NCBI GenBank assembly: GCA_963840455.1
Contig: CAWIYV010000014.1
Location: 256,001 to 320,000 of the forward strand
Length of the DNA: 64,000 nt
DNA from: Nitrospirota bacterium
Lineage (GTDB): Bacteria > Nitrospirota > UBA9217
Direction of reading: 5' to 3'
A program made the translations under genes and the position numbers. The notes below the pieces were generated by a model, which was given only the letters and a program-made list of their open reading frames with translations, did not search any database and was not told the origin of the DNA. Below are positions 1-15,433 of the stretch, piece by piece (position 1 is the first letter of the stretch; the number at the start of each line of letters is the position of its first letter).

Positions 1-1784
1 ATGACAGGCGTAGCCAAGCCTGCAAAGTGAATAGATCTGTCCGAGAGTTTTATGGTGTCATGACAAATATCGCAAGCGCGACCGTCTACGACGACATGTT
101 TATAATGCTTCCCGGAAAGATAGCTATTGTACTCCGTTGTTCCGTAAATATGGCATGATTTGCACTGGTTTTTATCACTTACGGTTATACTTCCTGTATA
201 CCAGTCCGGTGTCTGCGCAGGATCAGATTGCGGGGGGATCCGTTGACCTTGTGCGAGCGTCTGGGTCCTCGGCCCGCCGTGGCAGCTTATTTCAGAGCAT
301 GTTTTTGCAGTCGCATTGAAAGATCCCGTTCCTGTTTTCGCGTTATACACGGCGTCGAAAATGACGTCAACAGTCCCGTTCATATGCTGATCGCACGACC
401 TCGTGTGGCAGGCTGCGCACGTAACGCCGTAGAGCGCCATGTGCTTTGCATGTTTCCCTGCAATGTTCGGATCCGCGGTGCCGGCAGGTGGTATGCCATG
501 GCAGGTTCCGCAGCTTGGTGAAGTCGGGATCGTGGGATGGCACTTCGTGCAGGAGGGGCCGCTTTGCGGCACGCCCCCGAGGTTTGTCCCGTGGCAATAG
601 GCATTCGCGCAGCCCGATGTCCCGGAGGGGGACGTCAGCACAAACGTCCCATGGTTCGAGCACGCGTCTCCCAGCCATCCCGCCGGATGTATGTTCGTAA
701 CTCCTCCCATGTGGCAGCTGGTGCAGGACGGCCCACTGTCGGGAACGCCGGTAAGGAATGCTCCATGGCAATACTGGTTTGCGCATGCGGTGGTCCCGGT
801 CGGGCTCGTATTGACATAAGGGCCATGCGTGCTGTATATGGGGCTCCAATTCGACGGGTGTATGGTCGTGGGGCCGCCCAAATGGCAAAGTGTACAGGAC
901 GGACCGCTGTTGGGAACTCCGGTAAGTGCCGCGCCGTGGCAGGACTGGTTCGCACATTCCGTGGTACCGGTCGGGCTCGTATTGACATAAGGCCCGTGAG
1001 TGCTGTATACGGGGACCCAGCTTGACGGGTGTCCGGAAGTGATACCACCTATATGACAGCTGGTGCAGGATGGGCCGCTGTTGGCGACGCCGGTAAGCGT
1101 TACCCCGTGGCAGTACTGGTTTGCGCAGGGGCTCGTAGTGTTGGCCTTCACATAGGGGCCATGCGTGCTTAATATGGGATTCCAGCCTGCCGGATGTACT
1201 GCAGTGGGGCTTCCCAGATGGCACGCGGTGCAGGACGGTCCGCTGTCTGGGACGCCGGTAAGTGAGGTTCCATGGCAATACTGATTAGAACAGGGGCTTG
1301 TCCCGTTTGAAGTCACATAGGATCCGTGCGTGCTGTATACCGGGGTCCAGTTTGCCGGATGTACGGAAGTGGGGCTTCCCAGATGGCACGCGGTGCAGGA
1401 CGGCCCGCTGTCTGGGACGCCGGTAAGTGAGGTTCCATGGCAATACTGATTAGAACAGGGACTTGTCCCGTTTGAAGACACATAGGATCCGTGCGTGCTG
1501 TATACAGGGGTCCAGTTTGCCGGATGTACGGAAGTGGGACTTCCCAAATGGCATGAGGTGCAGGAAACACCGGACACCCCTCCGCTATAATCAGCGCCGT
1601 GGCAATCGGCGCAGGTGGTGAGGTCCGTATTGGCCGCGGTCATATGTCCGGCCGGAAGCCAGTTGTCAACATGTTTTCCCATGTCGGAATTGAAGTGTGA
1701 TTGGTCGTTCGGATTGCTGCACCCGAGCAGCACCAGGGTCACGATCAGGGCGGTCAGCCAGTGCTTCAGGCTCACTTGTGACAT
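1..1784 (-). CDS. Large repetitive multiheme cytochrome c lipoprotein (CxxxxCH/CxxCH type), 3' end outside the window
   Basis: Hand translation: ATG at 1784 with GAGG RBS, MSQVSLKHWLTALIVTLVLLGC lipobox, frame open to the window edge. 12 CxxCH plus 7 CX4CH motifs (CSNQYCH, CANQYCH, CANQSCH, CANAYCH, CSEISCH). Not in the supplied ORF track. Confidence 0.93.
   Translation of the reverse strand, partial: MSQVSLKHWLTALIVTLVLLGCSNPNDQSHFNSDMGKHVDNWLPAGHMTAANTDLTTCADCHGADYSGGVSGVSCTSCHLGSPTSVHPANWTPVYSTHGSYVSSNGTSPCSNQYCHGTSLTGVPDSGPSCTACHLGSPTSVHPANWTPVYSTHGSYVTSNGTSPCSNQYCHGTSLTGVPDSGPSCTACHLGSPTAVHPAGWNPILSTHGPYVKANTTSPCANQYCHGVTLTGVANSGPSCTSCHIGGITSGHPSSWVPVYSTHGPYVNTSPTGTTECANQSCHGAALTGVPNSGPSCTLCHLGGPTTIHPSNWSPIYSTHGPYVNTSPTGTTACANQYCHGAFLTGVPDSGPSCTSCHMGGVTNIHPAGWLGDACSNHGTFVLTSPSGTSGCANAYCHGTNLGGVPQSGPSCTKCHPTIPTSPSCGTCHGIPPAGTADPNIAGKHAKHMALYGVTCAACHTRSCDQHMNGTVDVIFDAVYNAKTGTGSFNATAKTCSEISCHGGPRTQTLAQGQRIPPQSDPAQTPDWYTGSITVSDKNQCKSCHIYGTTEYNSYLSGKHYKHVVVDGRACDICHDTIKLSDRSIHFAGLATPV
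530..1570 (-). repeat. Intragenic tandem repeats of ~165-175 bp (~55-58 aa, two heme motifs each)
   Basis: gtggggcttcccagatggcacgcggtgcaggacgg occurs at 1204 and 1369 (165 bp apart); about six units, more diverged toward 530. Confidence 0.9.
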
Positions 1785-1819
1785 GTTTTTCACCTCTCAT
1801 TGTTCTGACGTCCGTGGCA
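1772..1819 (-). pseudogene. Relic 3' end of a pentaheme cytochrome gene
   Basis: Translates CHGRQNNER*KTCHK*, versus CHGYKNNERCRTCHR* at the end of 12190..12633. Confidence 0.75.
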
Positions 1820-1905
1820 GAGGATATACCGGCCATCATTAGTTTTTGCTTGCTCGACGCTAAACCATTGGCGCGAAGGAGGAATCCTGTAATGATTCGT
1901 GCAGG

Positions 1906-3357
1906 TCAGGCCTTGATCTTTTCCAGCATCTGATGGATTTCCTTCGGCATGACACCCTTCATGGTCTTGGCGAGGTAGGAACTTGTGGCTATGATGTGGA
2001 CCACCTTGATCATGAACTCTCTCTTCCTCGGGCTCATGGCATCGAGGGTGTTCATCTTGTGCATGTAGAAATCCCGTGCCGCCATGCCGAGCTCCTTCGC
2101 CACCTCTTCCAGGGTCATGTTCTTTGGTTTGATGACCGGCTCGACAAGGTTATACTTGCAGTAATCAAAGACCGCCACGTGCTCCCTGAGGCTGGGGTAG
2201 ATCTCGGAATAAGGCCAGGGTGCGATCGCCAGAAAGAACGCGAGGTCGGGATTATAGAACTTGGCCAGTTCCACGGTCTTACGCATTCCTTCCGCTGTAT
2301 CATCGGGCATGCCGAGCACAAAGGATGTTTCGGAAACGATATCCTGGGCATTGATCAGATCAATAGCACGCTTGGACTCCTCAACCTTGATGTTCTTGTT
2401 GAAAATGTCGAGCATCGCCTGATTCGTGGCCTCGACGCCCACGTAGATATGGTCGATATGCGCCTTTTTATACTTCTCCATGATATCCTCGTCACGGAGA
2501 ATATCGTCAACGCGGGTTTCCATAAGGATCCTGGTGCCCAAGTCCCGCTCGATCAACAGGTCGAGGATTGTTTCCCATCGCTTACGGTCAAGCGTCGGCG
2601 TCTCGTCGGCGAACATGACCACGTTCACGCCGTATAGGTCCCGCAGGTGTTCGAGCTCCGCAACGACGTTCTCGGGGCTCCGGCCCCGCCAGTTCCTCTG
2701 CCAGAACAGCTGCTGAGAGCAGAAGCTGCATCGTTGACTGCATCCGCGCGAGGTGCTGACAATGGCCAGCACCGAGTTCTCCATGGGCTTGTACGTATAG
2801 ATCGGCCAGTCCACGAGGTCCCATGCCATGGGCAGGCTGTCCAGGTCTTTGATGAAAGGCCGGGGAGGTGTGACGCTGACAGAGCCATTCCGGGCAAAAG
2901 CGATGGACCGCACCGAGGACGGATCGCCGTTGCTGGAAAGACAGTTGATGAGATCGACGACCGTTTCCTCGCCTTCACCCATGACGATGTAGTCAACGGG
3001 ATTGCCCGCCGTGGTCAGGATCTCGTCATAACAGTAGGTCGGGTGCACATTCCCGATGATGGTAATGATCCGGGGATCGATCTCTTTGGCCAGCGTGAGG
3101 ACCTTGAGGGCATCCACGATCTCGGCGGTAAACGCCGTGGTACCTACCACATCAGGCTTCTCTGCTTCGATCCGCTTGTGGATGTCATCGTAGGTGTGCC
3201 AGTGGCTCATGGCATCGTATATGACCGGCTCATACCCGGCAGACCGCAGGCTGCCCGCAAGATAGACAAAGGCGACATTCATCCATACGCCCGCCGACTC
3301 GACAACACCCGAATGGTAGGGCGGGGTGATCAAAAGTATTTTTTTAATCCTGCTCAT
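1906..3357 (-). CDS. B12-binding domain / radical SAM protein (class B methyltransferase or BchE-like)
   Basis: N-terminal cobalamin-binding-like domain (PDVVGTTAF...GNVHPT), TSRGCSQRCSFC CX3CX2C motif, YVGVEA. Confidence 0.9.
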   Translation of the reverse strand: MSRIKKILLITPPYHSGVVESAGVWMNVAFVYLAGSLRSAGYEPVIYDAMSHWHTYDDIHKRIEAEKPDVVGTTAFTAEIVDALKVLTLAKEIDPRIITIIGNVHPTYCYDEILTTAGNPVDYIVMGEGEETVVDLINCLSSNGDPSSVRSIAFARNGSVSVTPPRPFIKDLDSLPMAWDLVDWPIYTYKPMENSVLAIVSTSRGCSQRCSFCSQQLFWQRNWRGRSPENVVAELEHLRDLYGVNVVMFADETPTLDRKRWETILDLLIERDLGTRILMETRVDDILRDEDIMEKYKKAHIDHIYVGVEATNQAMLDIFNKNIKVEESKRAIDLINAQDIVSETSFVLGMPDDTAEGMRKTVELAKFYNPDLAFFLAIAPWPYSEIYPSLREHVAVFDYCKYNLVEPVIKPKNMTLEEVAKELGMAARDFYMHKMNTLDAMSPRKREFMIKVVHIIATSSYLAKTMKGVMPKEIHQMLEKIKA

Positions 3358-3521
3358 AGGTTCTCATAATATGCAAATTAATGCTGTAAATCAACTGAAA
3401 CATCAGAGAAACGCACTGTCTTGGGTCTGGAACAAGATCCGCCTCACCACGGGGACTTTATTCCGTCACGGACCGTGGTGAGGGCATATGCCCTAAATTG
3501 CCACCCAGGGTTGAGAGAGCG

Positions 3522-3866
3522 CTAATGATGAAACGTCATCGTGTACTGCCAGAACGTACCCAGCCCGAACACGACCAAAAGTATTGCATGTTTCATGATC
3601 AACATCTTCCTTCGTGATGCTTCAGCATCTTTTCCATACACATCAGGGATATACGTAAAAGTTCTCCCCGCACCAGCTCCAAAAACGATGAATACACATA
3701 CAATGCCGATATAAAAGAACTCCTTTTGCAACGAACGAATGGCATCCTGAGATCCAGGCCCGAGAATGACCTTCTCCAGACGGTATACGGCAAGCACAGT
3801 CGCTACCCAGCAACCTGCGGCAAAATCATGAATAAACCCGATCATTATGGTAAATATTTTTTTCAT
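3522..3866 (-). CDS. Small membrane protein with about 3 TM helices and His residues (CopD/DUF4149-like)
   Basis: 114 aa, hydrophobic segments, HDFAAGCW and KHAILL; co-oriented in the operon. Confidence 0.75.
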   Translation of the reverse strand: MKKIFTIMIGFIHDFAAGCWVATVLAVYRLEKVILGPGSQDAIRSLQKEFFYIGIVCVFIVFGAGAGRTFTYIPDVYGKDAEASRRKMLIMKHAILLVVFGLGTFWQYTMTFHH

Positions 3867-4063
3867 TCAATACGCCTTTTCGGCTACCTACAATTATCAG
3901 TCCAGCGCGGCTTCGGTATGCAAGTCCATCAGATCAAGCATGGTGGTAAAGATTGTGCTGAGCAACCCGGGCATGCTGTTTAAATTATTACACATGCACT
4001 TGCTGCCCGCAGGGATGCCTGCAGGGTAAAATGTCCTCGTGGCCCGGCGGAAATGTCCCGGAC

Positions 4064-5602
4064 CTACCGGGATGGAGGGGCATCCTTCCCCATCTTCCCC
4101 TTGTCCCGCTTCTTCAGTCTCTGTTGCTCCGACTTGAGGCCGGCCGGATGATCGGCCAGCGCCTGCTCCTCTGCCTTGGTTTTGTACCATCCTAGTGGAC
4201 GCTCGGCCTGGTCTTTAAAAGTGGACAAAGCATCATCCCGAAGCTTGGCAGCCTCGGCATCGGCCTGCGCAACGAGGATCTCATCCACCACCTGCGGGCA
4301 GGAGGCGACCGAACCCGGCCTGGCCTCGATTTCCTCGCGTACGCTTGGCTCGATCTTCGGGTCCTTGGCGGTCAGCATTTTGAGCTCGATCGAGAAATTG
4401 ACGTATCTCTCCAGCATGCGAAAGATAGCGGAATCTCCCATCGCGCCTGCGGACCGCTCCTCATCAGGCAGGGGCGAGACCTTGCCGTTCTCGATCTTGG
4501 CCCGGCCCACCATCTCGCAACCGGTCCCGCTATCGGTCGTGTAGCCGAGGTTATCGGTGATGACCGCAAGGACCGTCGGCACGTTCGCCAGGTCCCAGTG
4601 CGCCAGGAGCCCCACCTCCCCGTCCGGCAAGGGTTTGAGATCGTCAATGCTCATGGCCAGCACGCGCGACCACGGGGGAACCGGCCTTGTGCGCTTTTTT
4701 GGAGGCAGGCCTGTTACGCAACGCCGCAGGGAATCATCGAACAGGTTGGTGGCAGTCTCGGCCTCGCCCAGGACATTGACGCAATGTGAGCCGGGGATCC
4801 CGATGATCTCCTGCACCATGGCATAATAGTCATCGCGGGTCACGACACCGAACCGGCCGCGATAGCCGCCTCCATCGCAGATACGGCTTCCGGGAGGCAG
4901 CCGGAAGGACATCTTCTTCCGGCGGCATGCCTGGAAGAAATAGACATATGCCGATGTCGCGCCGATGAGCGCAACCGGTAGGCCGCTTGCCTCGGACTCG
5001 CGCAGGGCCTTGATCAGGGCGTTGACATCGATCCCCGACTTCCCGAGCAAAAATTGGCTGTCCGGTGTGCCGAAATGCTGCCGGGTCTGCTCCATGCCGA
5101 TCGCCATACCCATCGAAGGCGCCATTTCAGGGCTCGGCGCCAGAATGAGGATACGGCAGCGCTTGCCGTCCCTGAAGTCCGGGAAAAGGTACGATCCTGT
5201 CATCATCCGGTTCGCCGCGAACACAAGGCGTTTGCCGTCCTCATCCCGGAAAATGCGGCCGCGCTGAGTAAGGCTGGTGGTCCCGCCGGTGAGGCAGGCC
5301 ATCACTGACTTTTCCAGCGGAAAGGACGCTACGAGGTGCGTCTTGAACACATCGTTGTACACCATGGGGATGTCCTGCCAACGATCGATATCACCGGGCC
5401 TCACGTTCTTTGTATCGCAGAACTCCCGAAAGATGGCATTCACCGTGTAATGAAGCGTGAACATCCTGAGACAATACTCATTGAAATTTGGAACCACACC
5501 ATCAACGCCCGCCTCAATGAACGTGAGGACGTCTTCGGTCAAGCGGTGACGCTCAGCTTCCGCATCAGAAGGGGTCAATCGGGTCGAGGGCAACGCGTTC
5601 AT
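4064..5602 (-). CDS. LuxE/PaaK-like acyl-protein synthetase with a C-terminal extension
   Basis: LTGGTT loop, DGGGYRGR, GEAET, DLANVPTVLAVITDNLG and GRA match LuxE-family motifs; ~140 aa charged tail. Confidence 0.8.
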   Translation of the reverse strand: MNALPSTRLTPSDAEAERHRLTEDVLTFIEAGVDGVVPNFNEYCLRMFTLHYTVNAIFREFCDTKNVRPGDIDRWQDIPMVYNDVFKTHLVASFPLEKSVMACLTGGTTSLTQRGRIFRDEDGKRLVFAANRMMTGSYLFPDFRDGKRCRILILAPSPEMAPSMGMAIGMEQTRQHFGTPDSQFLLGKSGIDVNALIKALRESEASGLPVALIGATSAYVYFFQACRRKKMSFRLPPGSRICDGGGYRGRFGVVTRDDYYAMVQEIIGIPGSHCVNVLGEAETATNLFDDSLRRCVTGLPPKKRTRPVPPWSRVLAMSIDDLKPLPDGEVGLLAHWDLANVPTVLAVITDNLGYTTDSGTGCEMVGRAKIENGKVSPLPDEERSAGAMGDSAIFRMLERYVNFSIELKMLTAKDPKIEPSVREEIEARPGSVASCPQVVDEILVAQADAEAAKLRDDALSTFKDQAERPLGWYKTKAEEQALADHPAGLKSEQQRLKKRDKGKMGKDAPPSR

Positions 5603-5636
5603 ACTCCATGTCTCCCTTGAAAATTCAAACTCACCA

Positions 5637-5714
5637 TGAATCCAGGAGCGATTAGAATAACGATACTTCCTTAAAGATCGAAGATTCCCTGCAGCTTGCT
5701 GCAGGGAGCTTCAA
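5637..5714 (+). repeat. Double-hairpin element, copy lacking the left hairpin
   Basis: tgaatccaggagcga joined directly to ttagaataa...ccctgcagcttgctgcagggagcttcaa. Confidence 0.85.
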
Positions 5715-5762
5715 TAAGCCACTCTCTTTTACTTTGATCTAATCTTATTCTTCCTGCACGCC

Positions 5763-7106
5763 CTACAAAAGGCGCCTTTTGCCACGCACAATATCTCGTG
5801 ATGCCTTCCATTTTTCATAGGCTAGTTTATATCCATGCCGTACCGGGATTTGGTTCATGAGCGACAAAATGTGCGCTTCGGGGAAGCCGGCCCTCGGGAT
5901 CTTGAACATATGACGCAATACCCTCCCCAGGCGCAGCACCTCAAGCGAAGTCTCGTAGAATTGCTCTTCCCGCACCTCCGGGGTCATGGCCGGATCCGGA
6001 TGGTCGAACAACGCGTAAGCGCCGGTATAATATTCCCAGCCCATATCCTTAAAGAGATAGGGTTCATACTGCTCGCGAAGTTTGGTTCCCGGGTAAGGCA
6101 CGACCAGGGACGGGTGCATGCTCACGCCCAGCCGGTCGGCAAGTTCTACGGATCGCTTGAAATCATCCAGTGAATCCACACGGCTGCCGAGCATATAGAA
6201 GAGCGATACGTCGATTCCGTGGTCCCTGATCGTGCGCACTGCCCGCTCCCGGTCAAGGCCGATCTTCCCGTCGGCCCCGTATGCCTTCAAACTATCATCG
6301 GATATAGCGTCCCATCCGACCCAGACGGTCCGCATACCGCTCTCTCGGGCCGCGTTCAGCATCCTCTCCCCGGCGGGCGACAGCACCGGGCGGAGGCTGC
6401 CGAAGCCCATCCACGTTTTTTTACTTCCCTTGAGCGCCGTGAACAGATCGATGGCGCGCTGCTCCGTGCCTGTCCACCAGATGTTTTCGTCGCCGTTAAT
6501 ATACATCTTTTCCGGTATCGCGGCCACATCGCGCACCACATGACCAATAGGCCGAAACCGCACTTTCCCACCGTAGAACGGTTTGACCGAACAGAACGAG
6601 CAATTGTACGGGCATCCCCGCGAAGTGTTCACGACGCGGAACTGGTGCTTGCGTTTGCCTTGCAGTAATCCGTAGAGCGGCGTCGGAAGGTCATCCAGTT
6701 CGATCTGCTCACCCCGGTAAAATGGCTTAAGTTGGCCGGCCCGAAAGTCCTTCATGACCTGAGGCCAGACCGATTCCGCCTCGCCGATGACCACGGCATC
6801 TCCGTGCTGTTTCGCTTCCTCCGGCATGGCGGAAGCATGCATGTTGCCGAACACGACCTTGGCCCCCCGTGCCCGCAGCTTCTCGGCGATCCGATACCCC
6901 GGCACCGCGGTCGGCGTCAGGATGCTGATGGCCACCAGATCGCACTGCACCCGCTCGATAGCTTCGGGGTCGGCACTGGCGCTGATCAGCTCGATCTCGA
7001 TGCTTGGGTCCGCACGACGCGTGAGCGCTGCGAGATACTCAAGGCTCGGAGGCGCCACCGGTGTCCAGCCGAACGGCAATGGAGGGAAGATAATACAGAG
7101 TTTCAT
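5763..7106 (-). CDS. Second B12-binding domain / radical SAM protein
   Basis: DLVAIS...GNMHAS B12-like domain, TSRGCPYNCSFC; ATG at 7106 preferred to the upstream GTG. Confidence 0.9.
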   Translation of the reverse strand: MKLCIIFPPLPFGWTPVAPPSLEYLAALTRRADPSIEIELISASADPEAIERVQCDLVAISILTPTAVPGYRIAEKLRARGAKVVFGNMHASAMPEEAKQHGDAVVIGEAESVWPQVMKDFRAGQLKPFYRGEQIELDDLPTPLYGLLQGKRKHQFRVVNTSRGCPYNCSFCSVKPFYGGKVRFRPIGHVVRDVAAIPEKMYINGDENIWWTGTEQRAIDLFTALKGSKKTWMGFGSLRPVLSPAGERMLNAARESGMRTVWVGWDAISDDSLKAYGADGKIGLDRERAVRTIRDHGIDVSLFYMLGSRVDSLDDFKRSVELADRLGVSMHPSLVVPYPGTKLREQYEPYLFKDMGWEYYTGAYALFDHPDPAMTPEVREEQFYETSLEVLRLGRVLRHMFKIPRAGFPEAHILSLMNQIPVRHGYKLAYEKWKASRDIVRGKRRLL

Positions 7107-7128
7107 TGTCAACACTCGGTTTTCAGCA

Positions 7129-7269
7129 TTGAAGCTCCCTGCAGCAAGACTTCGGCGAGTTCAGTCGAGTCGCTGGAGGGAATCTTCGATCCTCAAGGTA
7201 GTACTATTTATTCTAATTGCTCGCTAACCCCGCAGCAAGCAACGGGGAATGCGCTCGCTCCTGGATTCA
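7129..7269 (-). repeat. Double-hairpin element, full copy with a 24-nt insertion
   Basis: Reverse complement of the consensus, with extra acttcggcgagttcagtcgagtcg at 7149-7172. Confidence 0.9.
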
Positions 7270-7297
7270 GCAGTTGATGGCTTCCAGCCCCTTCTCC

Positions 7298-8122
7298 TCA
7301 GTGTTCGATGCGGAATCCGCTGTGGAACGTTTCCACAGTGAACGGAATACCCCAATAACTGACGATCATTGCCATCAATGCTATCAGCGCATACCACGCA
7401 AGCTTCTTGCCGCGCCAGCCGAAGGTTATCCGCAAATGGAGATAGATACCGTAAATAAGCCAGGATATAAGAGACCAGACCTCCACGGGGTCCCAGTTCC
7501 AGTAAGTGCCCTTCACTTGATTCGCCCAGAATGCACCAGATACGATCATAAGCCCATACAGGATGAACCCGCCTGCGACAAACCGGTATCCAAGATTATC
7601 GAGGACCTGCAGCTCAGGCAGCTTGTCATAGATGCCCCCGGAGTTCCGTTCTTTGAGCAGGTACATCAGACCCATACCTGCCGCGGTCAAGACCGCACCG
7701 AACCCGGCTGCCGCGCCGATGATATGAGCCCAGATCCATCCGCTCTGCAGCGCGGGGGACAACTGGGTTGCCGCATCCTTCACGAGCGTTCCCGCCCATC
7801 CCATGAGCACAAAGGCCACCGGCATGACGAGTACGCCGAGCGGCCGGACCTTTTTATTCATGAACTCGAACGTGAGGAATATCAGCACCGCGCAGAAGAT
7901 TCCGAATGTGATGGATTCCGAGATCGTAATGAACGGGCTAATGCCGGTCCTCATCCAGCGGAGAGCAATGACAAGGACATGGGGGACGAACCCGGCGAGG
8001 GTGCTGTACAGGCCGAAAGCAAAGAGTTTATCATGCTTCGAGATAATGCCGAAAATATAACTGCACGCACTCAATCCGTAAAGTCCCACGGCGATCCAAA
8101 ACAACATGTGTTCAGTCTTCAT
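7298..8122 (-). CDS. ccsA: System II cytochrome c synthase, CcsA/ResC subunit
   Basis: WWD-type motif WANQVKGTYWNWDPVEVW, conserved His (WAH, YLH), 8 TM segments. Confidence 0.93.
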   Translation of the reverse strand: MKTEHMLFWIAVGLYGLSACSYIFGIISKHDKLFAFGLYSTLAGFVPHVLVIALRWMRTGISPFITISESITFGIFCAVLIFLTFEFMNKKVRPLGVLVMPVAFVLMGWAGTLVKDAATQLSPALQSGWIWAHIIGAAAGFGAVLTAAGMGLMYLLKERNSGGIYDKLPELQVLDNLGYRFVAGGFILYGLMIVSGAFWANQVKGTYWNWDPVEVWSLISWLIYGIYLHLRITFGWRGKKLAWYALIALMAMIVSYWGIPFTVETFHSGFRIEH

Positions 8123-8241
8123 ATGCGCTCCTTATCGTTCCTCGTGAAAAGCCGTGAAATACCTGCAGTGCATTACCTCCGGCCGTCATAGTCCTTTTCA
8201 GTAATTCCGTGTCTGTGCAAGAGGATCACGATTTTTTACGT

Positions 8242-9366
8242 TCACGCGATCTTCTCTTCGAACCTGCTCCTTCTCATCCGCCCGATGAACGTCAAGATCA
8301 TGCCGCCCAAACCGACCCAAAGACTGGTCAGTACGATCGGTTTTCCCGGCTCATAGCGCACATTCATTCCAACCCAATAGCGAACTTCTTTTGCTTCAAG
8401 GTAATAATTGCCAACGTTCACCCTATTGCCGATGGCCGCTTTGCCTTCTGCAACAGCATATCCGCCCGGTCCCGGATCCTCTCCTTGAATCGGCCATACC
8501 TGGTAAAACGCTTCTCCAGCCCTCTCCCTTCCCTTGAGCAACGACGGACGATAGGCAACCTGGATACCGAACAGGGGCTTCAACGGGTCCTGCGGAAAGG
8601 GGAATGGTCCCGGACCCTCCCTTGTGCCGGTCGTGTAGAGATAGGATTCGTCCTTCTGTTTAAGGCTTTGAAGCGGAACATGTGCACCATAGAGTGCCTT
8701 TCCTGACTTATTATAAAGCATGATCAGGAGAGAATAGCCTTCTTTGTCACGGAAGTAGTCGAAACCATTATTGTCAAGCTTGTGCGTAACATAAATTATC
8801 CCCTGTTTTCTTGAGCGGCCTTCGCCTACAGCAACCTCATACGCCACTTGTTTATCTGCGCCATCTACGCTGTAATCTCTGTGCATTTGTATGAGGGTGG
8901 TTTCGCCTTTCAGCTTTGAAAAGGCGAAGAAACGTCCATGGTCGAACGCGTCATAGCTCTGTGGGTCGCCACTCGGGAGGGTCTCCCCTTCGGTCAGCCT
9001 GATCGTGCCTCGGAAGTAAAACAGGCTGTTATAGATGACTCCGCCCAGCATGGCAACAAAGCTTACGTGGAACAGGATCATGCCGAGCGAGATCAACGTC
9101 ACTTTCCTGCCCCATATCCTGCCGAAAAAGCAGAACGCCACATTCAGTACGAGAAGAACGAGAAGACCGTTGAACCAGAGCGTATTGAATATTAATGACC
9201 AGGCCTGTTCTCCACGAAGGACCGTGACTCCTGCCACACAGCACAGGAGAAGGGTGATCAGCAATACCAGGGCAAGCCTGGCCGATGCCATGAAATTGTA
9301 TGTCTTCCGCACGACAAGGGGGAACAGCTTATGGGGAGGATCAGGTGATGCGTTATTATATGGCAT
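8242..9366 (-). CDS. resB: ResB/CcsB-like cytochrome c biogenesis protein
   Basis: Three N-terminal TMs with FH, large periplasmic domain, C-terminal EPG plus TM; adjacent to ccsA. Confidence 0.85.
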   Translation of the reverse strand: MPYNNASPDPPHKLFPLVVRKTYNFMASARLALVLLITLLLCCVAGVTVLRGEQAWSLIFNTLWFNGLLVLLVLNVAFCFFGRIWGRKVTLISLGMILFHVSFVAMLGGVIYNSLFYFRGTIRLTEGETLPSGDPQSYDAFDHGRFFAFSKLKGETTLIQMHRDYSVDGADKQVAYEVAVGEGRSRKQGIIYVTHKLDNNGFDYFRDKEGYSLLIMLYNKSGKALYGAHVPLQSLKQKDESYLYTTGTREGPGPFPFPQDPLKPLFGIQVAYRPSLLKGRERAGEAFYQVWPIQGEDPGPGGYAVAEGKAAIGNRVNVGNYYLEAKEVRYWVGMNVRYEPGKPIVLTSLWVGLGGMILTFIGRMRRSRFEEKIA

Positions 9367-9623
9367 CGTATTTAATATTACTATAGCAGTTCACTGAATT
9401 GAATTGCGCCAGGCCCTTCGATCCGACGAGACTAAGCACAGGACCCATGCGGCAACTCTATAATAGAAAGTGAACCATCTCTATACCCAAAACAGCATGA
9501 TATTTCATTGCAGCGGAGAAGATCAGCGGTTTTGACGTAAAAAATAACGGGACAAACCCTGCATGCCGAAACGGGTAGTACTACTATCACCGTCATATGG
9601 GCATTCATGACTGTGATAAGAAC

Positions 9624-9652
9624 AAAAAGCCCCGCCTTTTCGGGCAGGGCTT
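9624..9652 (-). terminator. Intrinsic terminator after the large cytochrome gene
   Basis: Minus strand reads aagccctgcccgaaaaggcggggcttttt. Confidence 0.75.
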
Positions 9653-9676
9653 GATGTATGATACTACGATCAAACG

Positions 9677-12202
9677 TTAATACGTTCCGCCAACTGAATA
9701 ATTTTGTGATCCCTGACTGCAGGGACTTACATTTCCACCCATACAGGTCGGATTGGTGTACGTAGTTGCGCCAATTCTCTTCGGCTGATGCTGCGGCAAC
9801 ACCTGTCTATTCCGAATGAACGCAACTGGAGTCGGATCCGTAGACCATCTGCTCGTCGCCGTAAGAAGTGTACCGACTGTGCCCAGTGCGTTGCTGCCGT
9901 GAGTATCCTGAGCACGAATAGGTCGAGGAACAACGGTTGTATAACCACTGCTATGACAAATATTGCAGCCGTACTGTGCGTACACTGTCATACCGCTATT
10001 ATTACCAGTCTGCCATGCAGAGCCTGTCCCATGAGGGGACACTGTATAACCGGCATGGCAAACCTGACATAACGTCACCGAATTAGCAGCTGAAGGTGTC
10101 CCGCTCACAGTCGCAATACCCCTGATAGTTTGAGCGTTACCATGGGCCGCAACCGTACGCGTGGTGAGTGGAGATGCTCCTGATACGTTATGACAGTCAA
10201 AGCAGTTTATAACCACACCTTGGCTGAGCGTACCAGCAGTTCCTCTTGTTCCTGTCGGCTTATAGGGATCATTCATTCTAGCAGCAGTTGGGAAGTCCCT
10301 GTTCTTTGGTCCTAGCACAGGATGCCAGGAGCTATTCGATGTCGCCAATTGTGTTTTAACATCAACAACACCGCCGAGAGCAGCAGCGCCATTAGCCACC
10401 GTATAATTTGCGCCCAGATTGACACCGCCAAAAGGCATGAAGGCAGTACCCCCCGGAGTGCGAACTGTCGGATTGGTTGCACCGTTGCTGTCATGGCAGG
10501 CCAGGCAGAACTTCTGGGTCAAGACGTTATCAACATTATTAGATGTGTTTCCGGTTGATGTTCTTGATCCTGCAGCATATGAGGTAGCAAACTTTGTGAA
10601 CGTAAAGGCTCCGCCAGTCATATTCGTGATGGGGGTCTCGCCGGCGCCGTCCGGGTCGCGCAGGTCAATGTTACCGTCACCATGCAAGGCCGATCGCGCT
10701 TGCGTCGCATAGTTACCCTCAAGATGGCAGACGATGCAATCTGCATCGGTAACTGCTCCGCGGCCTGATTTTTTATGGCCCCAAGCCAGACTGAATTCGC
10801 CCACAACGGCATCGCGTGGTGTTCCGTGCGTTCCTGTTTGAGCTGAGGCATGGCAATCAACGCACCTCGCTACCGCGCCGTGACAGAGCGTGTTGTCGAA
10901 GCAGTTCGGCGTTCCGGGCACGGGCGTACTGTAGGTCGGCGGCTGTATATTGTTCCAGTGACAGAGCCCGCAGACGGCGGCATTCGCCATATTAGTCGTC
11001 GAGTGCTTCCTTGTCGACGTCGACTGCCACGGGAAGGCGTGGGGCGAATTCACTCCAGCGCCATGACAGCCGGCCGTGTTCAGACAAGTGGTCGCGGCAG
11101 CGCCGGCGAAATTGGCGCCATGGCAGGTCTGACAGGTACTGAAACCCTGCATGGCCGTGGCACTCGGCGCTGACTTTGCTGCAGCACCGTGGGTGTCAGG
11201 GTTGGCCCACCCCGCGGCATGGCCCACCTGGCCGTGGCAGAGCGTATTGTCAAAACAGCCCACCGGCACCGTCAGGACAACGTAGGACGGAGGTTGCCTG
11301 TTCGCCAGGTGACAAAGCCCGCAAGCAGAAGCATTGGCCACATTAGTCGTCGAGTGCTTCCTTGTCGACGTCGACTGCCACGGGAAGGCGTGGGGCGAAT
11401 TCACTCCAGCGCCATGACAGCCGGCCGTGTTCAGACAAGTGGTCGCGGCAGCGCCGGCGAAATTGGCGCCATGGCAGGTCTGACAGGTACTGAAACCCTG
11501 CATGGCCGTGGCACTCGGCGCTGACTTTGCTGCTGCGCCGTGCTGGTCAGGGTTGGCCCATCCCACGGCATGGCCGACCTGGCCGTGGCACAGGGTATTG
11601 TCAAAGCACCCGACCGGTGTGCCGGACGGCAGGGCGACATAGGTTGGCGGCGTCCTGCCGCTCAGGTGACAGAGTCCGCAAACAGCGGCATTACCCGGAT
11701 CGGTCGTCGAGTGTTTCCTTGTCGACGTCGACTGCCACGGGAAGGCGTGGGGAGAATCCACTCCAGCGCCATGACAGCCGGCCGTGTTCAGACAAGTGGT
11801 CGCGAAGCCACCGGAAAAATCGGCTCCATGGCAGAGCTCACAGTGGGCAAATCCCGTGCTTGAGGAGGGAGCTGCTTTCGCTGCAGCTCCATGCTGTGTC
11901 GGATCGTTCCAGCCTGCCGGATGTCCGGAAGGTCCGTTTGCATGGCATGACATGCCATTAAAGGAAGCGGAATAACAGCTTACCCCGGAAATGCCGCCTT
12001 TCAGGTCTGAGCCGTGGCATTGTGTGCACTGACTCGAGTCAGAGAGAAAGGCCGCCGGGTGGTCCGCGACCCAGTTGTCAGGGTGCTTCCCTGTTTTGGA
12101 ATCAAATATTGTGCCGCCCTTGCGTGCATCGGTGCAAGCGGCAGCCAGCAGCATCAGCCCGATGCTCAGCGTGACGCCAATTCTCATGCTTATCGATGAC
12201 AT
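9677..12202 (-). CDS. Large multiheme cytochrome c lipoprotein with CX5CH and CX9CH motifs (ExtG-like position)
   Basis: Lipobox LAAAC; 13 CxxCH, 6 CX5CH (CLNTAGCH x3, CFDNTLCH x3) and 1 CX9CH. ATG 12202 chosen because its context matches the start at 1784. Confidence 0.93.
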   Translation of the reverse strand: MSSISMRIGVTLSIGLMLLAAACTDARKGGTIFDSKTGKHPDNWVADHPAAFLSDSSQCTQCHGSDLKGGISGVSCYSASFNGMSCHANGPSGHPAGWNDPTQHGAAAKAAPSSSTGFAHCELCHGADFSGGFATTCLNTAGCHGAGVDSPHAFPWQSTSTRKHSTTDPGNAAVCGLCHLSGRTPPTYVALPSGTPVGCFDNTLCHGQVGHAVGWANPDQHGAAAKSAPSATAMQGFSTCQTCHGANFAGAAATTCLNTAGCHGAGVNSPHAFPWQSTSTRKHSTTNVANASACGLCHLANRQPPSYVVLTVPVGCFDNTLCHGQVGHAAGWANPDTHGAAAKSAPSATAMQGFSTCQTCHGANFAGAAATTCLNTAGCHGAGVNSPHAFPWQSTSTRKHSTTNMANAAVCGLCHWNNIQPPTYSTPVPGTPNCFDNTLCHGAVARCVDCHASAQTGTHGTPRDAVVGEFSLAWGHKKSGRGAVTDADCIVCHLEGNYATQARSALHGDGNIDLRDPDGAGETPITNMTGGAFTFTKFATSYAAGSRTSTGNTSNNVDNVLTQKFCLACHDSNGATNPTVRTPGGTAFMPFGGVNLGANYTVANGAAALGGVVDVKTQLATSNSSWHPVLGPKNRDFPTAARMNDPYKPTGTRGTAGTLSQGVVINCFDCHNVSGASPLTTRTVAAHGNAQTIRGIATVSGTPSAANSVTLCQVCHAGYTVSPHGTGSAWQTGNNSGMTVYAQYGCNICHSSGYTTVVPRPIRAQDTHGSNALGTVGTLLTATSRWSTDPTPVAFIRNRQVLPQHQPKRIGATTYTNPTCMGGNVSPCSQGSQNYSVGGTY
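10880..11930 (-). repeat. Three intragenic tandem repeats of ~351-357 bp (four heme motifs each)
   Basis: About 190 bp identical at 10991-11183 and 11342-11534; third partial match from 11703. Confidence 0.92.
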
Positions 12203-12633
12203 GTTCTGCACCTCTCATTGTTCTTATAGCCGTGGCAGGGGAAGCAGGACGCGGGGTCCAGCTTGCCGTCGATCTTGTGCTGGTTCAGGTAATCCCCGCG
12301 GTGCGGCATCGTTCTCTGCGGGGCATCCTTGTACTTATCGCTGGGCTTCAGCTCTTCCTTGTTCGCATGGCAGTCCGCGCAGAAGGCCTGCGTGTGGCAG
12401 AGCTCGCAGGTCCGCTTCTGCTGGGCAGCCGGGAACTGGTGCCGGCTGGCCCAGTCCTCCCGGTGGTCCATGGCGGTGCGCCAGTCGGTGTGGCAGTTGC
12501 TGCAGACCGGCATGCCCTGCACCTCCATGGGGTGCTTCGCCGGGAGGCTCTGTGTGGTCGCGCAGGCGAACAGAATGCCGGCGATCATCATTGCCATACT
12601 GCCGAGGATCAGGGTCTTTGCTGTTCCGCTCAT
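12190..12633 (-). CDS. Pentaheme cytochrome c lipoprotein (ExtF/ExtC-like)
   Basis: Lipobox LFAC; CSNCH, CELCH, CADCH, CFPCH, CRTCH. Confidence 0.92.
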   Translation of the reverse strand: MSGTAKTLILGSMAMMIAGILFACATTQSLPAKHPMEVQGMPVCSNCHTDWRTAMDHREDWASRHQFPAAQQKRTCELCHTQAFCADCHANKEELKPSDKYKDAPQRTMPHRGDYLNQHKIDGKLDPASCFPCHGYKNNERCRTCHR

Positions 12634-12660
12634 GGCCTCTCCTGAATAGATGGTGTTGAC

Positions 12661-13974
12661 CTAAGGCTTCTTCCCGCCGGGCTTTGCGGCGCCAGCGGAC
12701 GGCGCAGTCTTGGCCGCTCCGCCGAGCTTTGCATCGAAGTTATAGACGAAGTTCAGCATGCCGCGTACCTCCCGGATGACGTCGGGATTCGTGACGTACT
12801 CCACGTCGGCGACGATGCGAGCCTTGGGTGAGAAAGTGTAACCTGCAGCAGCGGTCCCCGTGTAGGCATCTGAAATGCCGTTGATCGACTGCTCGTAGGA
12901 CACATGGACGAAATCGAGGGTCATATCCGCTTTGGCGAACTTCTTGAACACGTACACGCGCTGCTCGTCGTAGCGGAGGTCGTCTGCCGGCCCGTTCATG
13001 CGGTGCAGGGCGGCCCCGGCGCCGAAGCCGGCGCCCGTGTACACGATGCTGCCTCCCGCATAGGTCGCCGAATCGTTCAGGACCTGGTAATCGTAGTTCC
13101 GATAATCAGCAATGACCGTGATCGGCCCGCCGATGGTTATGGCGATGCTCCCGCCGGTCATGGTGACGATCTCGCTCGGATCGATGTTCGTGAACGAGAA
13201 GGCGCTCATCAGCATGCTCTGCGTATTATTGACCGCCGAGAAGTATTCTTTATACCAGGTCTTTGAGGCGTCGAGGTTCAGGCGGAACCATGCGAAGGGG
13301 CCGATTGCTGCGTGATACTGGTGCTGCATCCAGTTCTTGGACGAACCGTTATAGGACGATGTGCCCATGAGCTCCAGTTTGCTCAGCGGCCTGATCCACA
13401 GGTCGAGGCCCTCTTCCTTGCGGAAGTCTTTTCCGTCGTTCTTTTCCTTCAGGTAGGACATGCCGATGGTGTAGATGCCGGGCAATCCCTGGGAGACCCT
13501 GCCGCCGTACACTGAATCCCCTGAACGCGTATCGCCGGCGGTCTCGACGGGGTTGCCACCATATGCCGCGATGGTGAAGCCGCCCTTGAGGTCCGTGCGG
13601 GCATAGGCACCGTCGATCTGCGCCGAGGCGACCCCCTCATTTACCCAGAGCCTCCCGAAGCTCAGCGCCGAGTTGCCTGTATTCTTTTTCAGGGTCACAT
13701 AGGCGTATTGGAGGTCACCGGTGGATCTTGTGCCAAATTCTTCGTTCTGCAGATCATACCGGTACCATCCCCCGAAATGGAATGTAACGGCATCCGATCC
13801 CGCATTGCCGGCTTTGAAGTTGAGATATTCATACAGCGGAAGGTACCGCGTGCCGTCCGCGGCCTGCCCGGACTGAAGATAGGTGCGTGACTGCCCCGAA
13901 AGGTCGAGGGCTGAAGCGGTGAAGGGGAGCGAAAAAAGGAGGGACAATGATGCGGCGATGCGAAGTGATCTCAT
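12661..13974 (-). CDS. Outer-membrane beta-barrel porin of a porin-cytochrome conduit (ExtE/ExtB-like)
   Basis: Signal peptide MRSLRIAASLSLLFSLPFTASA, alternating Tyr/Gly-rich beta strands, YNF near the C-terminus; directly upstream of the cytochromes. Confidence 0.82.
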   Translation of the reverse strand: MRSLRIAASLSLLFSLPFTASALDLSGQSRTYLQSGQAADGTRYLPLYEYLNFKAGNAGSDAVTFHFGGWYRYDLQNEEFGTRSTGDLQYAYVTLKKNTGNSALSFGRLWVNEGVASAQIDGAYARTDLKGGFTIAAYGGNPVETAGDTRSGDSVYGGRVSQGLPGIYTIGMSYLKEKNDGKDFRKEEGLDLWIRPLSKLELMGTSSYNGSSKNWMQHQYHAAIGPFAWFRLNLDASKTWYKEYFSAVNNTQSMLMSAFSFTNIDPSEIVTMTGGSIAITIGGPITVIADYRNYDYQVLNDSATYAGGSIVYTGAGFGAGAALHRMNGPADDLRYDEQRVYVFKKFAKADMTLDFVHVSYEQSINGISDAYTGTAAAGYTFSPKARIVADVEYVTNPDVIREVRGMLNFVYNFDAKLGGAAKTAPSAGAAKPGGKKP

Positions 13975-14031
13975 GCGTTCATGCTCCTCGGAAGGTGAGT
14001 TTTCACCACAGATACCGCATATATTGCAGCC

Positions 14032-14060
14032 ATTGTATAGGTTCTTCTTGGCCGTGTCAA
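14032..14060 (-). promoter_or_regulatory. Sigma70 promoter of the porin-cytochrome operon
   Basis: TTGACA-17-TACAAT on the minus strand. Confidence 0.7.
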
Positions 14061-14070
14061 TAGTGCTCAC

Positions 14071-14086
14071 GGTGATCCTGATCACA
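14071..14086. promoter_or_regulatory. CRP/FNR-family-like binding site
   Basis: GGTGA-N6-TCACA, one mismatch from TGTGA-N6-TCACA. Confidence 0.5.
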
Positions 14087-14275
14087 AAAATAATCCCACC
14101 CGGGCCCGGGTTTTCACGGACGAATTACCTCGGGAAATGCCTGAGCCCACTGGCTAATCCGGCGATGTGGAAGTCGTCCCTTGATTTCTCCCTGCGGCTA
14201 GTGTACCTTTTACCTATATCTTTCCATCGTGGCCTTGCTGATCGCAGAGGACATGTGAGGGATGAGGAGTTCTGC

Positions 14276-15433
14276 ATGAAGCACACAACGCGAAGATCGT
14301 TCGTTGCTGCAGCCATCGTGCTGGCCGTTGGCGCTCTGGCCTCCTGCGCCACGGTCCATGTCAATCACATTCCGGAGCCGCGGCCGACGGCAAAGCTCCG
14401 GATCTATGTCGAAGCGTTCACCCTGGGGCCGAGCCATTGGTCGTGGTCGGTACCCCATGAACAGCATGCGAAGAACCAGATCATACGGACAGGCAAGTTC
14501 CTGGAGAAGAAGGGGATCTATGAGGTCGTGAGCACCGACGATGTAAAGGCCGTTATCGGGGACCAGGTGCTCTCCTACGATCTCATGAAGAACAACGGGT
14601 GGGCGAATGCCCGCGTGATCGGGAAAGCGCTGCACGCAGACTTTGTGCTGGTCACTGCCCGGAACAAGAGCAATGTGGGGACCGGCGAGTGGACGTTCAT
14701 ATTTACGACCGAGCTCGTGAACGTCGAGACCGGCGCAGCTTTCAGGTCGCAGATAAGCGTCAATAATATCATCGCTTCTGACCAAGAGTTCGCGACCAAG
14801 CTCATGCGGGAGAGCTATCGCGACCTGTTCACGCAGGCCAAACATGACATGATGGCTGTCGCAGTCCGGAAGGGGAGGGCATATGCCCCGCAGGCAGCGC
14901 CAGCCCCTGCGAAGGTCCAGCAGGCGCCGGTGATCGCAAGGCCGGCCGGGCCTTCAGCACCGGCGGCCCCGCCGATCCCTGATATCCCGGGAGCCGGCCT
15001 GTTCGAAGAGCCTAAGCGGGACCCGGGAGCGAAGAAGCTGGTGGTGTACGATCTCGATTCGATTGAACAGTACCGGACCGTTGCGCTGATCCTGGCCGAG
15101 GCCCTGCGTGAAGAGGTGTTCAAGCTAAAGCAGTTCGTGCTGGTGAACCGCGAGGATCTGCAAAAGGTGCTGGAAGAGATGGCACTACAGCAGACCGGCC
15201 TGATCGACGAGAAGCAGGCGGTCAAAACGGGCAAGGGGCTTGCGGCGAACCAGGTGGTGACAGGCCGGCTGGGGCTCCTGGGAAAGACCTTTGTATTGCA
15301 GGCGAAGCGGGTGGACGTGGAGACCTTCAGGACACTGAGTCTTGTCTCAACGAAGTTCACCGAGGGGCAGGAGGACGAAGTGCTGAACACGCTGCCCGAT
15401 TTCGTCCGGACGTTGGCAGGGCAGCAGCAGTAG
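14276..15433 (+). CDS. Lipoprotein with CsgG/LpoB-like domain(s)
   Basis: TRRSF...LASC; C-terminal LVNREDLQKVLEEMALQQTGL...GKGLAA..VVTG; Pro/Ala linker. Confidence 0.78.
   Translation: MKHTTRRSFVAAAIVLAVGALASCATVHVNHIPEPRPTAKLRIYVEAFTLGPSHWSWSVPHEQHAKNQIIRTGKFLEKKGIYEVVSTDDVKAVIGDQVLSYDLMKNNGWANARVIGKALHADFVLVTARNKSNVGTGEWTFIFTTELVNVETGAAFRSQISVNNIIASDQEFATKLMRESYRDLFTQAKHDMMAVAVRKGRAYAPQAAPAPAKVQQAPVIARPAGPSAPAAPPIPDIPGAGLFEEPKRDPGAKKLVVYDLDSIEQYRTVALILAEALREEVFKLKQFVLVNREDLQKVLEEMALQQTGLIDEKQAVKTGKGLAANQVVTGRLGLLGKTFVLQAKRVDVETFRTLSLVSTKFTEGQEDEVLNTLPDFVRTLAGQQQ

Follow-up and report, generated by a model that had tools for sequence, protein, structure and literature searches.

A BchE-sister radical SAM module linked by gene neighbourhood to System II cytochrome c maturation in Nitrospirota, Geobacteraceae, and other bacteria

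We analysed a 64,000-nucleotide (nt) stretch of DNA from a Nitrospirota bacterium (assembly GCA_963840455.1, contig CAWIYV010000014.1, positions 256,001 to 320,000 of the forward strand; hereafter, the window), in which two B12-binding radical S-adenosylmethionine (SAM) enzymes, here called rS1 and R2, are encoded beside a ResB/CcsA pair of the System II (CcsBA) type and multiheme cytochromes. The gene neighbourhoods of many species lend good support to a functional link between the module of R2, a sister of the enzyme BchE, and System II cytochrome c maturation, and we regard such a link as probable. A literature search of partial coverage turned up no paper connecting a radical SAM enzyme with CcsBA or reporting a module of this kind.

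Multiheme cytochromes pass electrons to minerals, electrodes, and partner cells, and the general assumption is that they contain ordinary heme c. A conserved pairing of a cytochrome c synthase with the nearest relatives of the chlorophyll ring-E cyclase would imply an undescribed maturation step, for which an altered heme, an altered apoprotein, and a route of heme delivery to System II are candidates. Cultured carriers exist (Geomonas spp. and Geobacter argillaceus), so that the question is directly testable.

Ten co-oriented minus-strand genes occupy positions 1–13974 of the window in six-frame lists of open reading frames (ORFs), and their order (porin-like, pentaheme, cytA, resB, ccsA, rS1, LuxE-like, memb, R2, and cytB) is as given in a preliminary description of this DNA. 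Gene families were assigned from Pfam and NCBIfam matches. The genes from resB to cytB are the following:

8242..9366, minus strand: ResB/CcsB-like System II component, 374 amino acids (aa) (PF05140)
7298..8122, minus strand: CcsA of the 'type 1' clade, a subunit of the System II cytochrome c synthase (PF01578, TIGR03144, and clade support)
5763..7115, minus strand: rS1, B12-binding radical SAM enzyme, 450 aa (B12-binding and Radical_SAM domains, CX3CX2C)
4064..5602, minus strand: LuxE-like adenylate-forming enzyme of the acyl-protein synthetase family, 512 aa (PF04443)
3522..3866, minus strand: memb, three-helix membrane protein, 114 aa (conserved columns and structure model)
1906..3357, minus strand: R2, BchE-sister B12-binding radical SAM enzyme, 483 aa (B12-binding and Radical_SAM domains, C206/C210/C213)
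1..1793, minus strand: cytB, lipoprotein-type multiheme cytochrome, 632 aa, with 12 CXXCH and 8 CX4CH motifs; the gene ends 105 nt past the window start

Conservation of the gene neighbourhood

A search with an alignment of seven R2 orthologs yielded 511 relatives in a species-genome collection, the best 80 of which (61–95 per cent identity, one per species) were used. Their loci, with up to 10 kb of flank on each side, were scored by BLASTP with the window proteins and by motif counts. The records belong to Nitrospirota, Geobacteraceae, Desulfurivibrionaceae, Planctomycetota, and Gammaproteobacteria, and orthologs that are 70–95 per cent identical to R2 are titled Nitrospirae, Nitrospiraceae, or Thermodesulfovibrionales. 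A ccsA homolog is found anywhere in the locus in 52 of these 80 cases and within 7 kb of R2 in 47. Also within 7 kb of R2 are memb (50/80), a cytochrome with at least five CXXCH motifs (42/80), a LuxE-like gene (35/80), and rS1 (29/80). Among loci with at least 5 kb of upstream sequence, 40 of 58 contain ccsA. As a background, 1.5 per cent of the bases of the window's genome lie within 7 kb of any of its four ccsA-like ORFs and 9.6 per cent lie within 7 kb of a cytochrome with at least five hemes. None of the eight other radical SAM paralogs of this genome is located within 30 kb of a ccsA-like ORF or of such a cytochrome. Even R2 relatives of only 41 per cent identity still adjoin ccsA, memb, and LuxE (L182 and L186–L188).

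A second set of loci was centred on the LuxE-like gene and drawn from metagenome contigs (the best 80 of 206 relatives). At least one partner gene is present on 69 of these 80 contigs, and six of the 11 partnerless contigs are at most 4.1 kb long. Where a contig extends for at least 4 kb on each side of the gene (14 cases), a partner is always present (R2 on 12, rS1 on 13, and ccsA on 11). The radical SAM and LuxE-like genes are therefore not chance neighbours of the synthase genes, since ccsA/resB stand beside them in both the R2-centred and the LuxE-centred loci of many species. The preliminary description had allowed for such orthologs lying mostly outside this context; for the synthase they do not, but cytochrome structural genes proved to be less constant companions. 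The similar neighbourhoods that it mentioned for Geobacter do exist (L083 of Geobacter argillaceus, and L084, L091, L094, L095, and L102 of Geomonas spp.).

R2 and its kinship with BchE

R2 consists of a B12-binding domain (PF02310, 94.8 bits) and a radical SAM domain (PF04055, 94 bits) with a CX3CX2C motif. The motif cysteines C206, C210, and C213 and the B12-binding domain are invariant in 20 of 20 R2 sequences. By far the best NCBIfam match is the BchE model TIGR02026 (399.7 bits, with the next best model at 134), which is aligned over positions 1–432 of 497 and has a curated cut-off of 481.35, above the score of R2. In a scan of 1.84 billion representatives, full-length clusters of the R2 family rank first (44–62 per cent identity to R2), and directly behind them are two proteins (41 and 39 per cent identity to R2) with BchE scores of 769.5 and 760.9 bits.

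To place R2 relative to BchE, we reconstructed a quick maximum likelihood tree of 37 rows (LG+G4, with support from the Shimodaira–Hasegawa-like approximate likelihood ratio test [SH-aLRT] only), without sequences of BchQ and BchR, which are BchE paralogs that act as methyltransferases. In this tree, a clade with a support of 100 is made up of two sister groups. One contains the two BchE proteins and three unnamed proteins (with a support of 95), and the other contains 16 R2-family rows and three further unnamed proteins (with a support of 99). This position of R2, in the sister group of the BchE-containing clade, favours a tetrapyrrole as the substrate of a radical SAM enzyme, as the preliminary description had suggested.

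One source's automatic names for R2 orthologs, 'anaerobic magnesium-protoporphyrin IX monomethyl ester cyclase', and the far superior match to the BchE model would make R2 a genuine BchE that serves bacteriochlorophyll synthesis. This reading has next to no probability and is refuted as far as sequence can tell. Specifically, the R2 score is below the cut-off, R2 groups outside of the clade of the proteins scoring 761–770 bits, and the genome has no BchM over the cut-off (the best TIGR02021 match is 52.6 bits versus 158.9). Additionally, in the class that holds Geobacter argillaceus, BchE over the cut-off was found in none of 151 sampled genomes, though 41 of them have R2-like matches to the BchE model (370–435 bits). 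We conclude that R2 is not BchE itself, although no characterised protein is more closely related to it. The name 'anaerobic Mg-protoporphyrin IX monomethyl ester cyclase', which automatic annotation has widely given in non-phototrophs, is corrected by this result.

We also considered R2 as a missing step of heme b synthesis. AhbD is present in the genome (521.6 bits, over the cut-off), where HemN was not found; another R2-bearing genome has HemN (598.8 bits), and two Geobacteraceae-type R2 carriers have AhbD-like matches below the cut-off. A genome of the same genus (G001) has no R2 ortholog (its best match is 30 per cent identical). Heme b synthesis is thus covered without R2, which is therefore not a missing core step.

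The ResB/CcsA pair

ResB matches PF05140 in two stretches of partial coverage (43.3 bits versus a gathering threshold of 24.6). CcsA matches PF01578 (121.1 bits versus 29.9) and scores just below the cut-off of TIGR03144 (181.7 versus 187.6 bits). The residues W199, W208, W210, D211, W216, and W221 of the WWD motif and the histidines H133, H229, and H267, which we take by their positions to be the published heme ligands, are kept in 20 of 20 type-1 CcsA sequences. The same WWD residues and histidines are kept in 26–30 of 30 sequences of a second type (type 2, described below). The three histidines also occur in all three other CcsA paralogs of the genome, which holds four ccsA-like ORFs. Because these residues are kept, all CcsA groups appear, by sequence, to be working synthases. 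The accepted role of CcsBA is the export of heme from the cytoplasm, according to the consulted part of PMC12285233.

Two architectures and the history of the module

The loci fall into two architectures. Type 1, to which the window belongs, comprises resB, a ccsA 55–88 per cent identical to that of the window, rS1, luxE, memb, and R2. In some type-1 loci, genes for PMT_2/TPR membrane proteins, a type II secretion system (T2SS) pseudopilin, or a small lipoprotein are inserted, or a gene for a PD40 propeller lies upstream. Type 2 comprises cytochromes, a ResB-like gene (PF05140, 1.4e-21), a ccsA 26–37 per cent identical to that of the window, and then R2 and memb, without rS1 and luxE; it is common in Geobacteraceae records and is also found in the closest relative of the window locus (L026, with an R2 that is 95 per cent identical). 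Both rS1 and LuxE are present in 23 of 25 loci with type-1 ccsA versus one of 27 loci with type-2 ccsA only. Of the radical SAM, LuxE-like, and CcsBA genes that the preliminary description had grouped into one candidate system, rS1 and LuxE are accessory, being absent from the second architecture; R2 and memb accompany either CcsA type.

In a quick tree of ccsA, the type-1 sequences form one clade (SH-aLRT support of 97) in which Nitrospirota and Geobacteraceae rows are mixed. The ccsA paralog on contig C7 of the genome and its relatives form a separate clade (with a support of 99), and type-2 ccsA sequences are spread over several clades. Five 'other' rows (L196, L197, L198, L201, and L210) were disregarded, as they are located on a very long branch and are probably wrong ORFs selected by the longest-ORF rule. 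Among 24 relatives, all six genomes with a window-type ccsA (at least 59 per cent identity; G002, G004, G005, G009, G012, and G014) have R2, and neither gene is present in G001, G006, G007, G010, and G015.

In comparison with the window, the type-1 genes of Geobacteraceae are 78–81 per cent (luxE) and 75–78 per cent (rS1) identical, versus 61–64 per cent for R2 and 35–42 per cent for memb, and their order is R2 then memb rather than memb then R2. These differences in identity and the flipped order suggest that the module is a composite of two sub-modules, each with its own history, although differing rates of change would be another explanation. In four loci (L094, L096, L099, and L102), luxE (79–81 per cent) and rS1 (75–78 per cent) are much nearer to those of the window than R2 and memb are, and the type-1 ccsA nests among Nitrospirota rows, which hints at a lateral exchange of the resB–ccsA–rS1–luxE block between phyla.

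Several related loci contain additional genes. PMT_2 and TPR membrane proteins, which resemble protein O-mannosyltransferases, are encoded within or beside the luxE...memb–R2 module in L032, L034, L041, L049, L098, L228, and L229, and a T2SS pseudopilin G gene is inserted in eight related loci; these genes may provide further modification or export steps for the cytochromes. An ATPase gene of an ATP-binding cassette (ABC) transporter (family f12) is located within 7 kb of R2 in L029, L038, L059, L069, L089, and L098. Its product, by eye of the cobalt/energy-coupling factor (ECF) type, would fit a cobalamin-dependent enzyme.

Copy numbers of R2 also vary. Many genomes of the Geobacter argillaceus class have two or three R2-like copies, often in tandem, and a record titled 'Dongiaceae bacterium' (L080, G041), which was sampled in that class and may be mislabelled, has three R2-like genes. 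A Geobacteraceae-type genome (L226–L228; G117 C1 3780001–3832000) has a supercluster of approximately 50 kb, all on one strand, in which R2 is joined by two R2-like paralogs (39–44 per cent identity), three genes of the rS1 type, two ccsA genes, and six multiheme cytochromes.

The accessory enzymes and the membrane protein

rS1 has a CX3CX2C motif and matches no NCBIfam model at or above its cut-off. Its weak matches are to a methyl-coenzyme M reductase (MCR) glutamine C-methyltransferase model (50 bits) and to a B12-radical SAM model of lipid biosynthesis (60 bits versus a cut-off of 360). The LuxE-like enzyme is a clear member of PF04443 (1.4e-19; 70.7 bits versus a gathering threshold of 24.9) and reaches 57.1 bits on the equivalog model NF052244, which has a cut-off of 550. 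Its sole sequence match in the PDB is LuxE (7xc6_E, 5.8e-14), over residues 43–354, and its C-terminus is extended by about 150 aa. LuxE proper activates fatty acids. No LuxC-type reductase was found by Pfam and NCBIfam among the ten annotated genes of the cluster.

In an alignment of 20 memb orthologs, F11, H13, D14, G18, F51, G65, R68, G78, L89, K92, and H93 are invariant. The structure model is a three-helix membrane bundle (predicted local distance difference test [pLDDT] of 90.7), for which Foldseek returned no match in the PDB at E ≤ 0.001. Fourteen of the 20 members weakly match the Pfam family CopD (PF05425; best 3.8e-6), on which the window protein scores 16.6 bits versus a gathering threshold of 32.1. 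In the Atlas, memb falls first into its own unnamed cluster, followed by CopD, DUF2214, and DUF4149 clusters at 0.76–0.78, which serves as a lead only. The two invariant histidines in the membrane helices would fit a heme or metal site. A predicted complex of R2 and memb scored 0.00, gave no verdict, and counts neither way.

Cytochromes, transcription units, and neighbouring genes

The remaining features of the cluster are the following:

14032..14060, minus strand: sigma-70-like promoter match (TTGACA, 17-nt spacer, TACAAT; 11/12), a consensus match only
12661..13974, minus strand: porin-like barrel; the ORF is open to 14085, and its likely start is M38 at 13974
12190..12633, minus strand: pentaheme cytochrome, 147 aa, with 5 CXXCH motifs
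9677..12211, minus strand: cytA, lipoprotein-type multiheme cytochrome, 844 aa, with 13 CXXCH, 6 CX5CH, and 1 CX9CH motifs
9627..9652, minus strand: strong terminator-like hairpin directly 3' of the cytA stop (10-bp stem with 7 GC pairs and a T-rich tail), a consensus match only

The promoter-like site at 14060–14032 fits a porin start at 13974. From this site and the hairpin at 9652–9627, which are consensus matches only, two transcription units are proposed: the features suggest that the ten genes are divided into a porin–pentaheme–cytA unit (unit 1) and a resB...cytB unit (unit 2).

The porin-like protein has a signal peptide (read by eye) and no Pfam match. Its AlphaFold2 model, built with five homologs, consists of a signal helix and 22 beta strands (pLDDT of 62.5) and is matched by Foldseek to outer-membrane porins (MOMP/Occ; E of about 1e-8, template modelling [TM] scores of 0.4–0.5). 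Because of this barrel and these matches, the label 'porin-like' is fair at the level of the predicted fold. The cytochrome cytA has a lipobox (LLAAAC, by eye) and three repeats of about 117 aa. The full 632 aa of cytB were taken from the genome sequence past the window edge. They contain six tandem CX4CH...CXXCH units, encoded by tandem repeats of 165–171 nt, and pass TIGR01904 (CxxxxCH/CxxCH domain) over residues 470–566 (46.9 bits versus a cut-off of 27). Both of these 20-heme cytochromes have lipoprotein-type signal peptides (by eye). The genome (4.03 Mb in 14 contigs) contains 60 ORFs with at least three CXXCH motifs, among which cytA and cytB have the most CX4–5CH motifs. DNA nearly identical to that of the window is found in wetland and freshwater habitats.

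With its barrel taken from a model of medium confidence and its lipoboxes read by eye, unit 1 looks like a porin–cytochrome conduit, in which the porin-like barrel, the pentaheme cytochrome, and the 20-heme surface lipoprotein cytochrome would carry electrons across the outer membrane. A second set of such genes is located on contig C9 at 169484–172081 (L231 3484–6081), with a porin-like protein (40 per cent identity), a pentaheme cytochrome (62 per cent), and a cytochrome with six CXXCH motifs; BLAST found no ccsA or radical SAM genes beside it. On contig C11 (48043–54490), AhbD is encoded approximately 1 kb from a 1472-aa cytochrome with 27 CXXCH, three CX4CH, and one CX5CH motifs.

Divergent plus-strand genes at window positions 13883–16964 encode a CsgG/LpoB-like lipoprotein, a nitroreductase family protein, and a metallo-beta-lactamase-fold protein. 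Beyond cytB lies a cytochrome-like fragment, followed by genes that, judged by eye, are unrelated, a MarC-type gene among them. L026 also keeps the nitroreductase and MarC genes as neighbours. The fragment, a 145-aa ORF just beyond the window start (L003 15272–15709, minus strand), has no signal peptide, one CX4CH and one CXXCH motif, and a degenerate 'CTSVH' at an expected CXXCH, and looks like a remnant of a duplicated cytB-type repeat.

Association with long-spaced heme motifs

CX4CH is among the known heme c motifs (PMC11492766, consulted in part). The preliminary description had tied the module to cytochromes with such long-spaced motifs, and this tie is partial at best and weaker than proposed. 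Cytochromes with at least two CX4–5CH motifs occur near R2 in seven of 33 cases for Nitrospirota-labelled loci and in 21 of 30 for other taxa, compared to two of 32 elsewhere in the window's genome. By Fisher's test, the enrichment has a P-value of 1.2e-4 for all loci and 0.15 for Nitrospirota alone, where the background is this genome only and related species are not independent. We call the tie partial because of the many loci with CXXCH-only cytochromes, the non-independent species, and a background that is not a proper one for the other taxa.

Proposed mechanism and alternative explanations

We propose that unit 2 may be a dedicated System II cytochrome c maturation module, in which ResB and CcsA would export heme and attach it through thioether bonds, and R2, memb, rS1, and the LuxE-like enzyme would be four co-inherited partners that work in the inner membrane or on its cytoplasmic side. 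A chemical change to heme, or to its immediate precursor, would be made by R2 at the membrane or in the cytoplasm. In loci that have them, rS1 and the LuxE-like enzyme may add further steps such as propionate activation, possibly through adenylation of the propionate by the LuxE-like enzyme, much as methyl esterification precedes BchE. The dedicated CcsBA would then export the altered heme and join it to the giant multiheme cytochromes encoded nearby.

In our view, the best reading is that heme is tailored before export, and we hold it tentatively; that the substrate is heme, what change it undergoes, what memb does, and that CcsBA takes over the product are all parts that we infer. Heme would be the most economical substrate because R2 is kin to BchE, CcsBA exports heme, heme b synthesis is provided for separately, and the 63 cytochromes beside R2 share no N-terminal motif (2/63), heme c being their common feature. 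The proposal in its fullest form is possible but doubtful: the BchE-sister enzyme and the two-histidine memb would alter a heme side chain, one lineage would have added further steps through rS1 and a propionate-activating LuxE-like ligase, and the giant extracellular cytochromes of Geobacteraceae, Thermodesulfovibrionia-type Nitrospirota, and other bacteria would have the new heme covalently attached by a co-evolved CcsBA after export. If true, tetrapyrrole biosynthesis would gain a new branch, and the covalently bound hemes a new species.

Several observations weigh against heme tailoring or the generality of the module. Kinship with BchE does not fix the substrate of R2, B12-radical SAM enzymes also modify proteins and lipids, and we know of no modified covalently bound heme of this kind. 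The absence of rS1 and LuxE from the type-2 architecture means that they are not generally required, and the LuxE-like enzyme is therefore not needed for whatever R2 does. The link to CX4–5CH motifs is weak in Nitrospirota (7/33 versus 2/32, P-value of 0.15), and many R2/ccsA loci carry CXXCH-only cytochromes (for example, L046, L062–L064, L067, and L069). Of the 80 R2 loci, 28 (mostly on short contigs) are without ccsA, and four loci with long flanks (L047, L059, L100, and L105) have ordinary neighbours and no cytochrome context. Cytochrome structural genes are infrequent in the LuxE-centred loci (14/80, and 4/14 among the long ones), and related species in all of the locus counts are not independent samples.

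The same neighbourhood would also fit if the radical SAM and LuxE-like enzymes modified the apocytochrome, by side-chain methylation or cross-linking, or its lipid anchor before Sec export, with the dedicated CcsBA maturing the product. Protein-modifying B12-radical SAM enzymes exist, rS1 weakly matches the MCR glutamine C-methyltransferase model, enzymes of the LuxE family acylate proteins, and both cytA and cytB have lipoprotein-type signal peptides. We nevertheless regard apoprotein modification as unlikely: the R2-adjacent cytochromes are very diverse and lack a common N-terminal motif, the nearest characterised relative of R2 works on a tetrapyrrole rather than a peptide, and the domains that Pfam matched in R2 and rS1 are B12-binding and Radical_SAM only, with none known for peptide recognition. 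The enzymes could instead belong to an unrelated pathway (for a lipid, a quinone, or another cofactor of extracellular electron transfer) that is merely co-located or co-regulated, with the extra CcsBA serving capacity or the recognition of CX4–5CH motifs. Dedicated synthases without a radical SAM partner are indeed described for other odd motifs (NrfI for CXXCK and CcsA1 for CX15CH; PMC12285233, in part), ResB/ResC pairs of Geobacter have been proposed to serve nearby cytochromes (PMC2700814, in part), LuxE proper works on fatty acids, rS1 has its weak match to the lipid-biosynthesis model, and related loci include PMT_2/TPR membrane proteins and a pseudopilin. Such a coincidence seems improbable to us, as the adjacency to ccsA survives across several phyla, two architectures, and strand changes and is tighter than the adjacency to cytochrome structural genes, rS1 and LuxE are co-inherited with one CcsA clade, and no recurrent genes of lipid or quinone biosynthesis are found among the neighbour families.

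R2, with memb, might also handle heme without changing it, either as a chaperone that delivers heme to CcsBA or as a keeper of the heme state. HemW sets a precedent as a radical SAM heme chaperone at the membrane (PMC10114771, in part), the consulted part of PMC10470608 treats the route of heme from the cytoplasm to CcsBA as a still open question, and memb has two invariant histidines in its transmembrane helices. Pure delivery is quite improbable in our estimate: R2 retains the full CX3CX2C motif and the B12-binding domain without exception in 20 of 20 sequences, as expected for a catalyst, and no such partner is encoded near the remaining CcsA paralogs of the genome.

Comparison with known systems

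R2 resembles BchE (the anaerobic Mg-protoporphyrin IX monomethyl ester oxidative cyclase) in its domain layout, with B12-binding at the N-terminus ahead of a radical SAM core, and in the CX3CX2C motif. It differs in lacking the last 65 or so positions of the BchE model and in having a cytochrome c synthase rather than bch genes as its genomic partner. BchE is described as a membrane-associated B12-radical SAM enzyme that first abstracts H-13^1 of the propionate methyl ester of the Mg-porphyrin (PMC10114771, in part). The LuxE-like enzyme is homologous to LuxE (PF04443; PDB 7xc6_E) over residues 43–354, including a glycine/threonine-rich nucleotide motif (by eye), but it is far below the equivalog cut-off and has an extra C-terminal region in comparison with the LuxE of luciferase systems.

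Among the cytochromes, cytB belongs with the CxxxxCH/CxxCH domain proteins (TIGR01904/PF09698) by passing the domain cut-off, but its tandem units at about residues 100–420 fall outside of the match, and the CX5CH units of cytA match no model. The porin–cytochrome (Pcc) conduit of Geobacter consists of OmbB, OmaB, and OmcB. Unit 1 resembles such conduits in the order of a porin-like barrel, a small periplasmic multiheme cytochrome, and a large lipoprotein multiheme cytochrome; the small cytochrome of the window has five hemes rather than eight and the large one has 20, and the likeness considered here is one of gene order.

With respect to the synthase, the closest parallels are NrfI and CcsA1 of Wolinella succinogenes, the latter for the CX15CH motif of MccA, since each is an extra CcsA/CcsB-type synthase encoded beside its presumed client cytochromes (PMC12285233, in part). 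No radical SAM, LuxE-like, or small histidine-bearing membrane partners are described for them in the consulted part of that source. In the window, ResB and CcsA are separate proteins, and the motifs in the neighbouring cytochromes are CX4CH and CX5CH, or CXXCH only in many related loci. Similarly, Aklujkar et al. (2009) reported that Geobacter has four ResB/ResC pairs, every one of which is co-transcribed with genes for multiheme cytochromes and may be dedicated to the products of those genes (PMC2700814, in part). The term 'radical SAM' has no occurrence in the main text of that paper, and the orthologous loci in Geobacter and Geomonas records carry R2.

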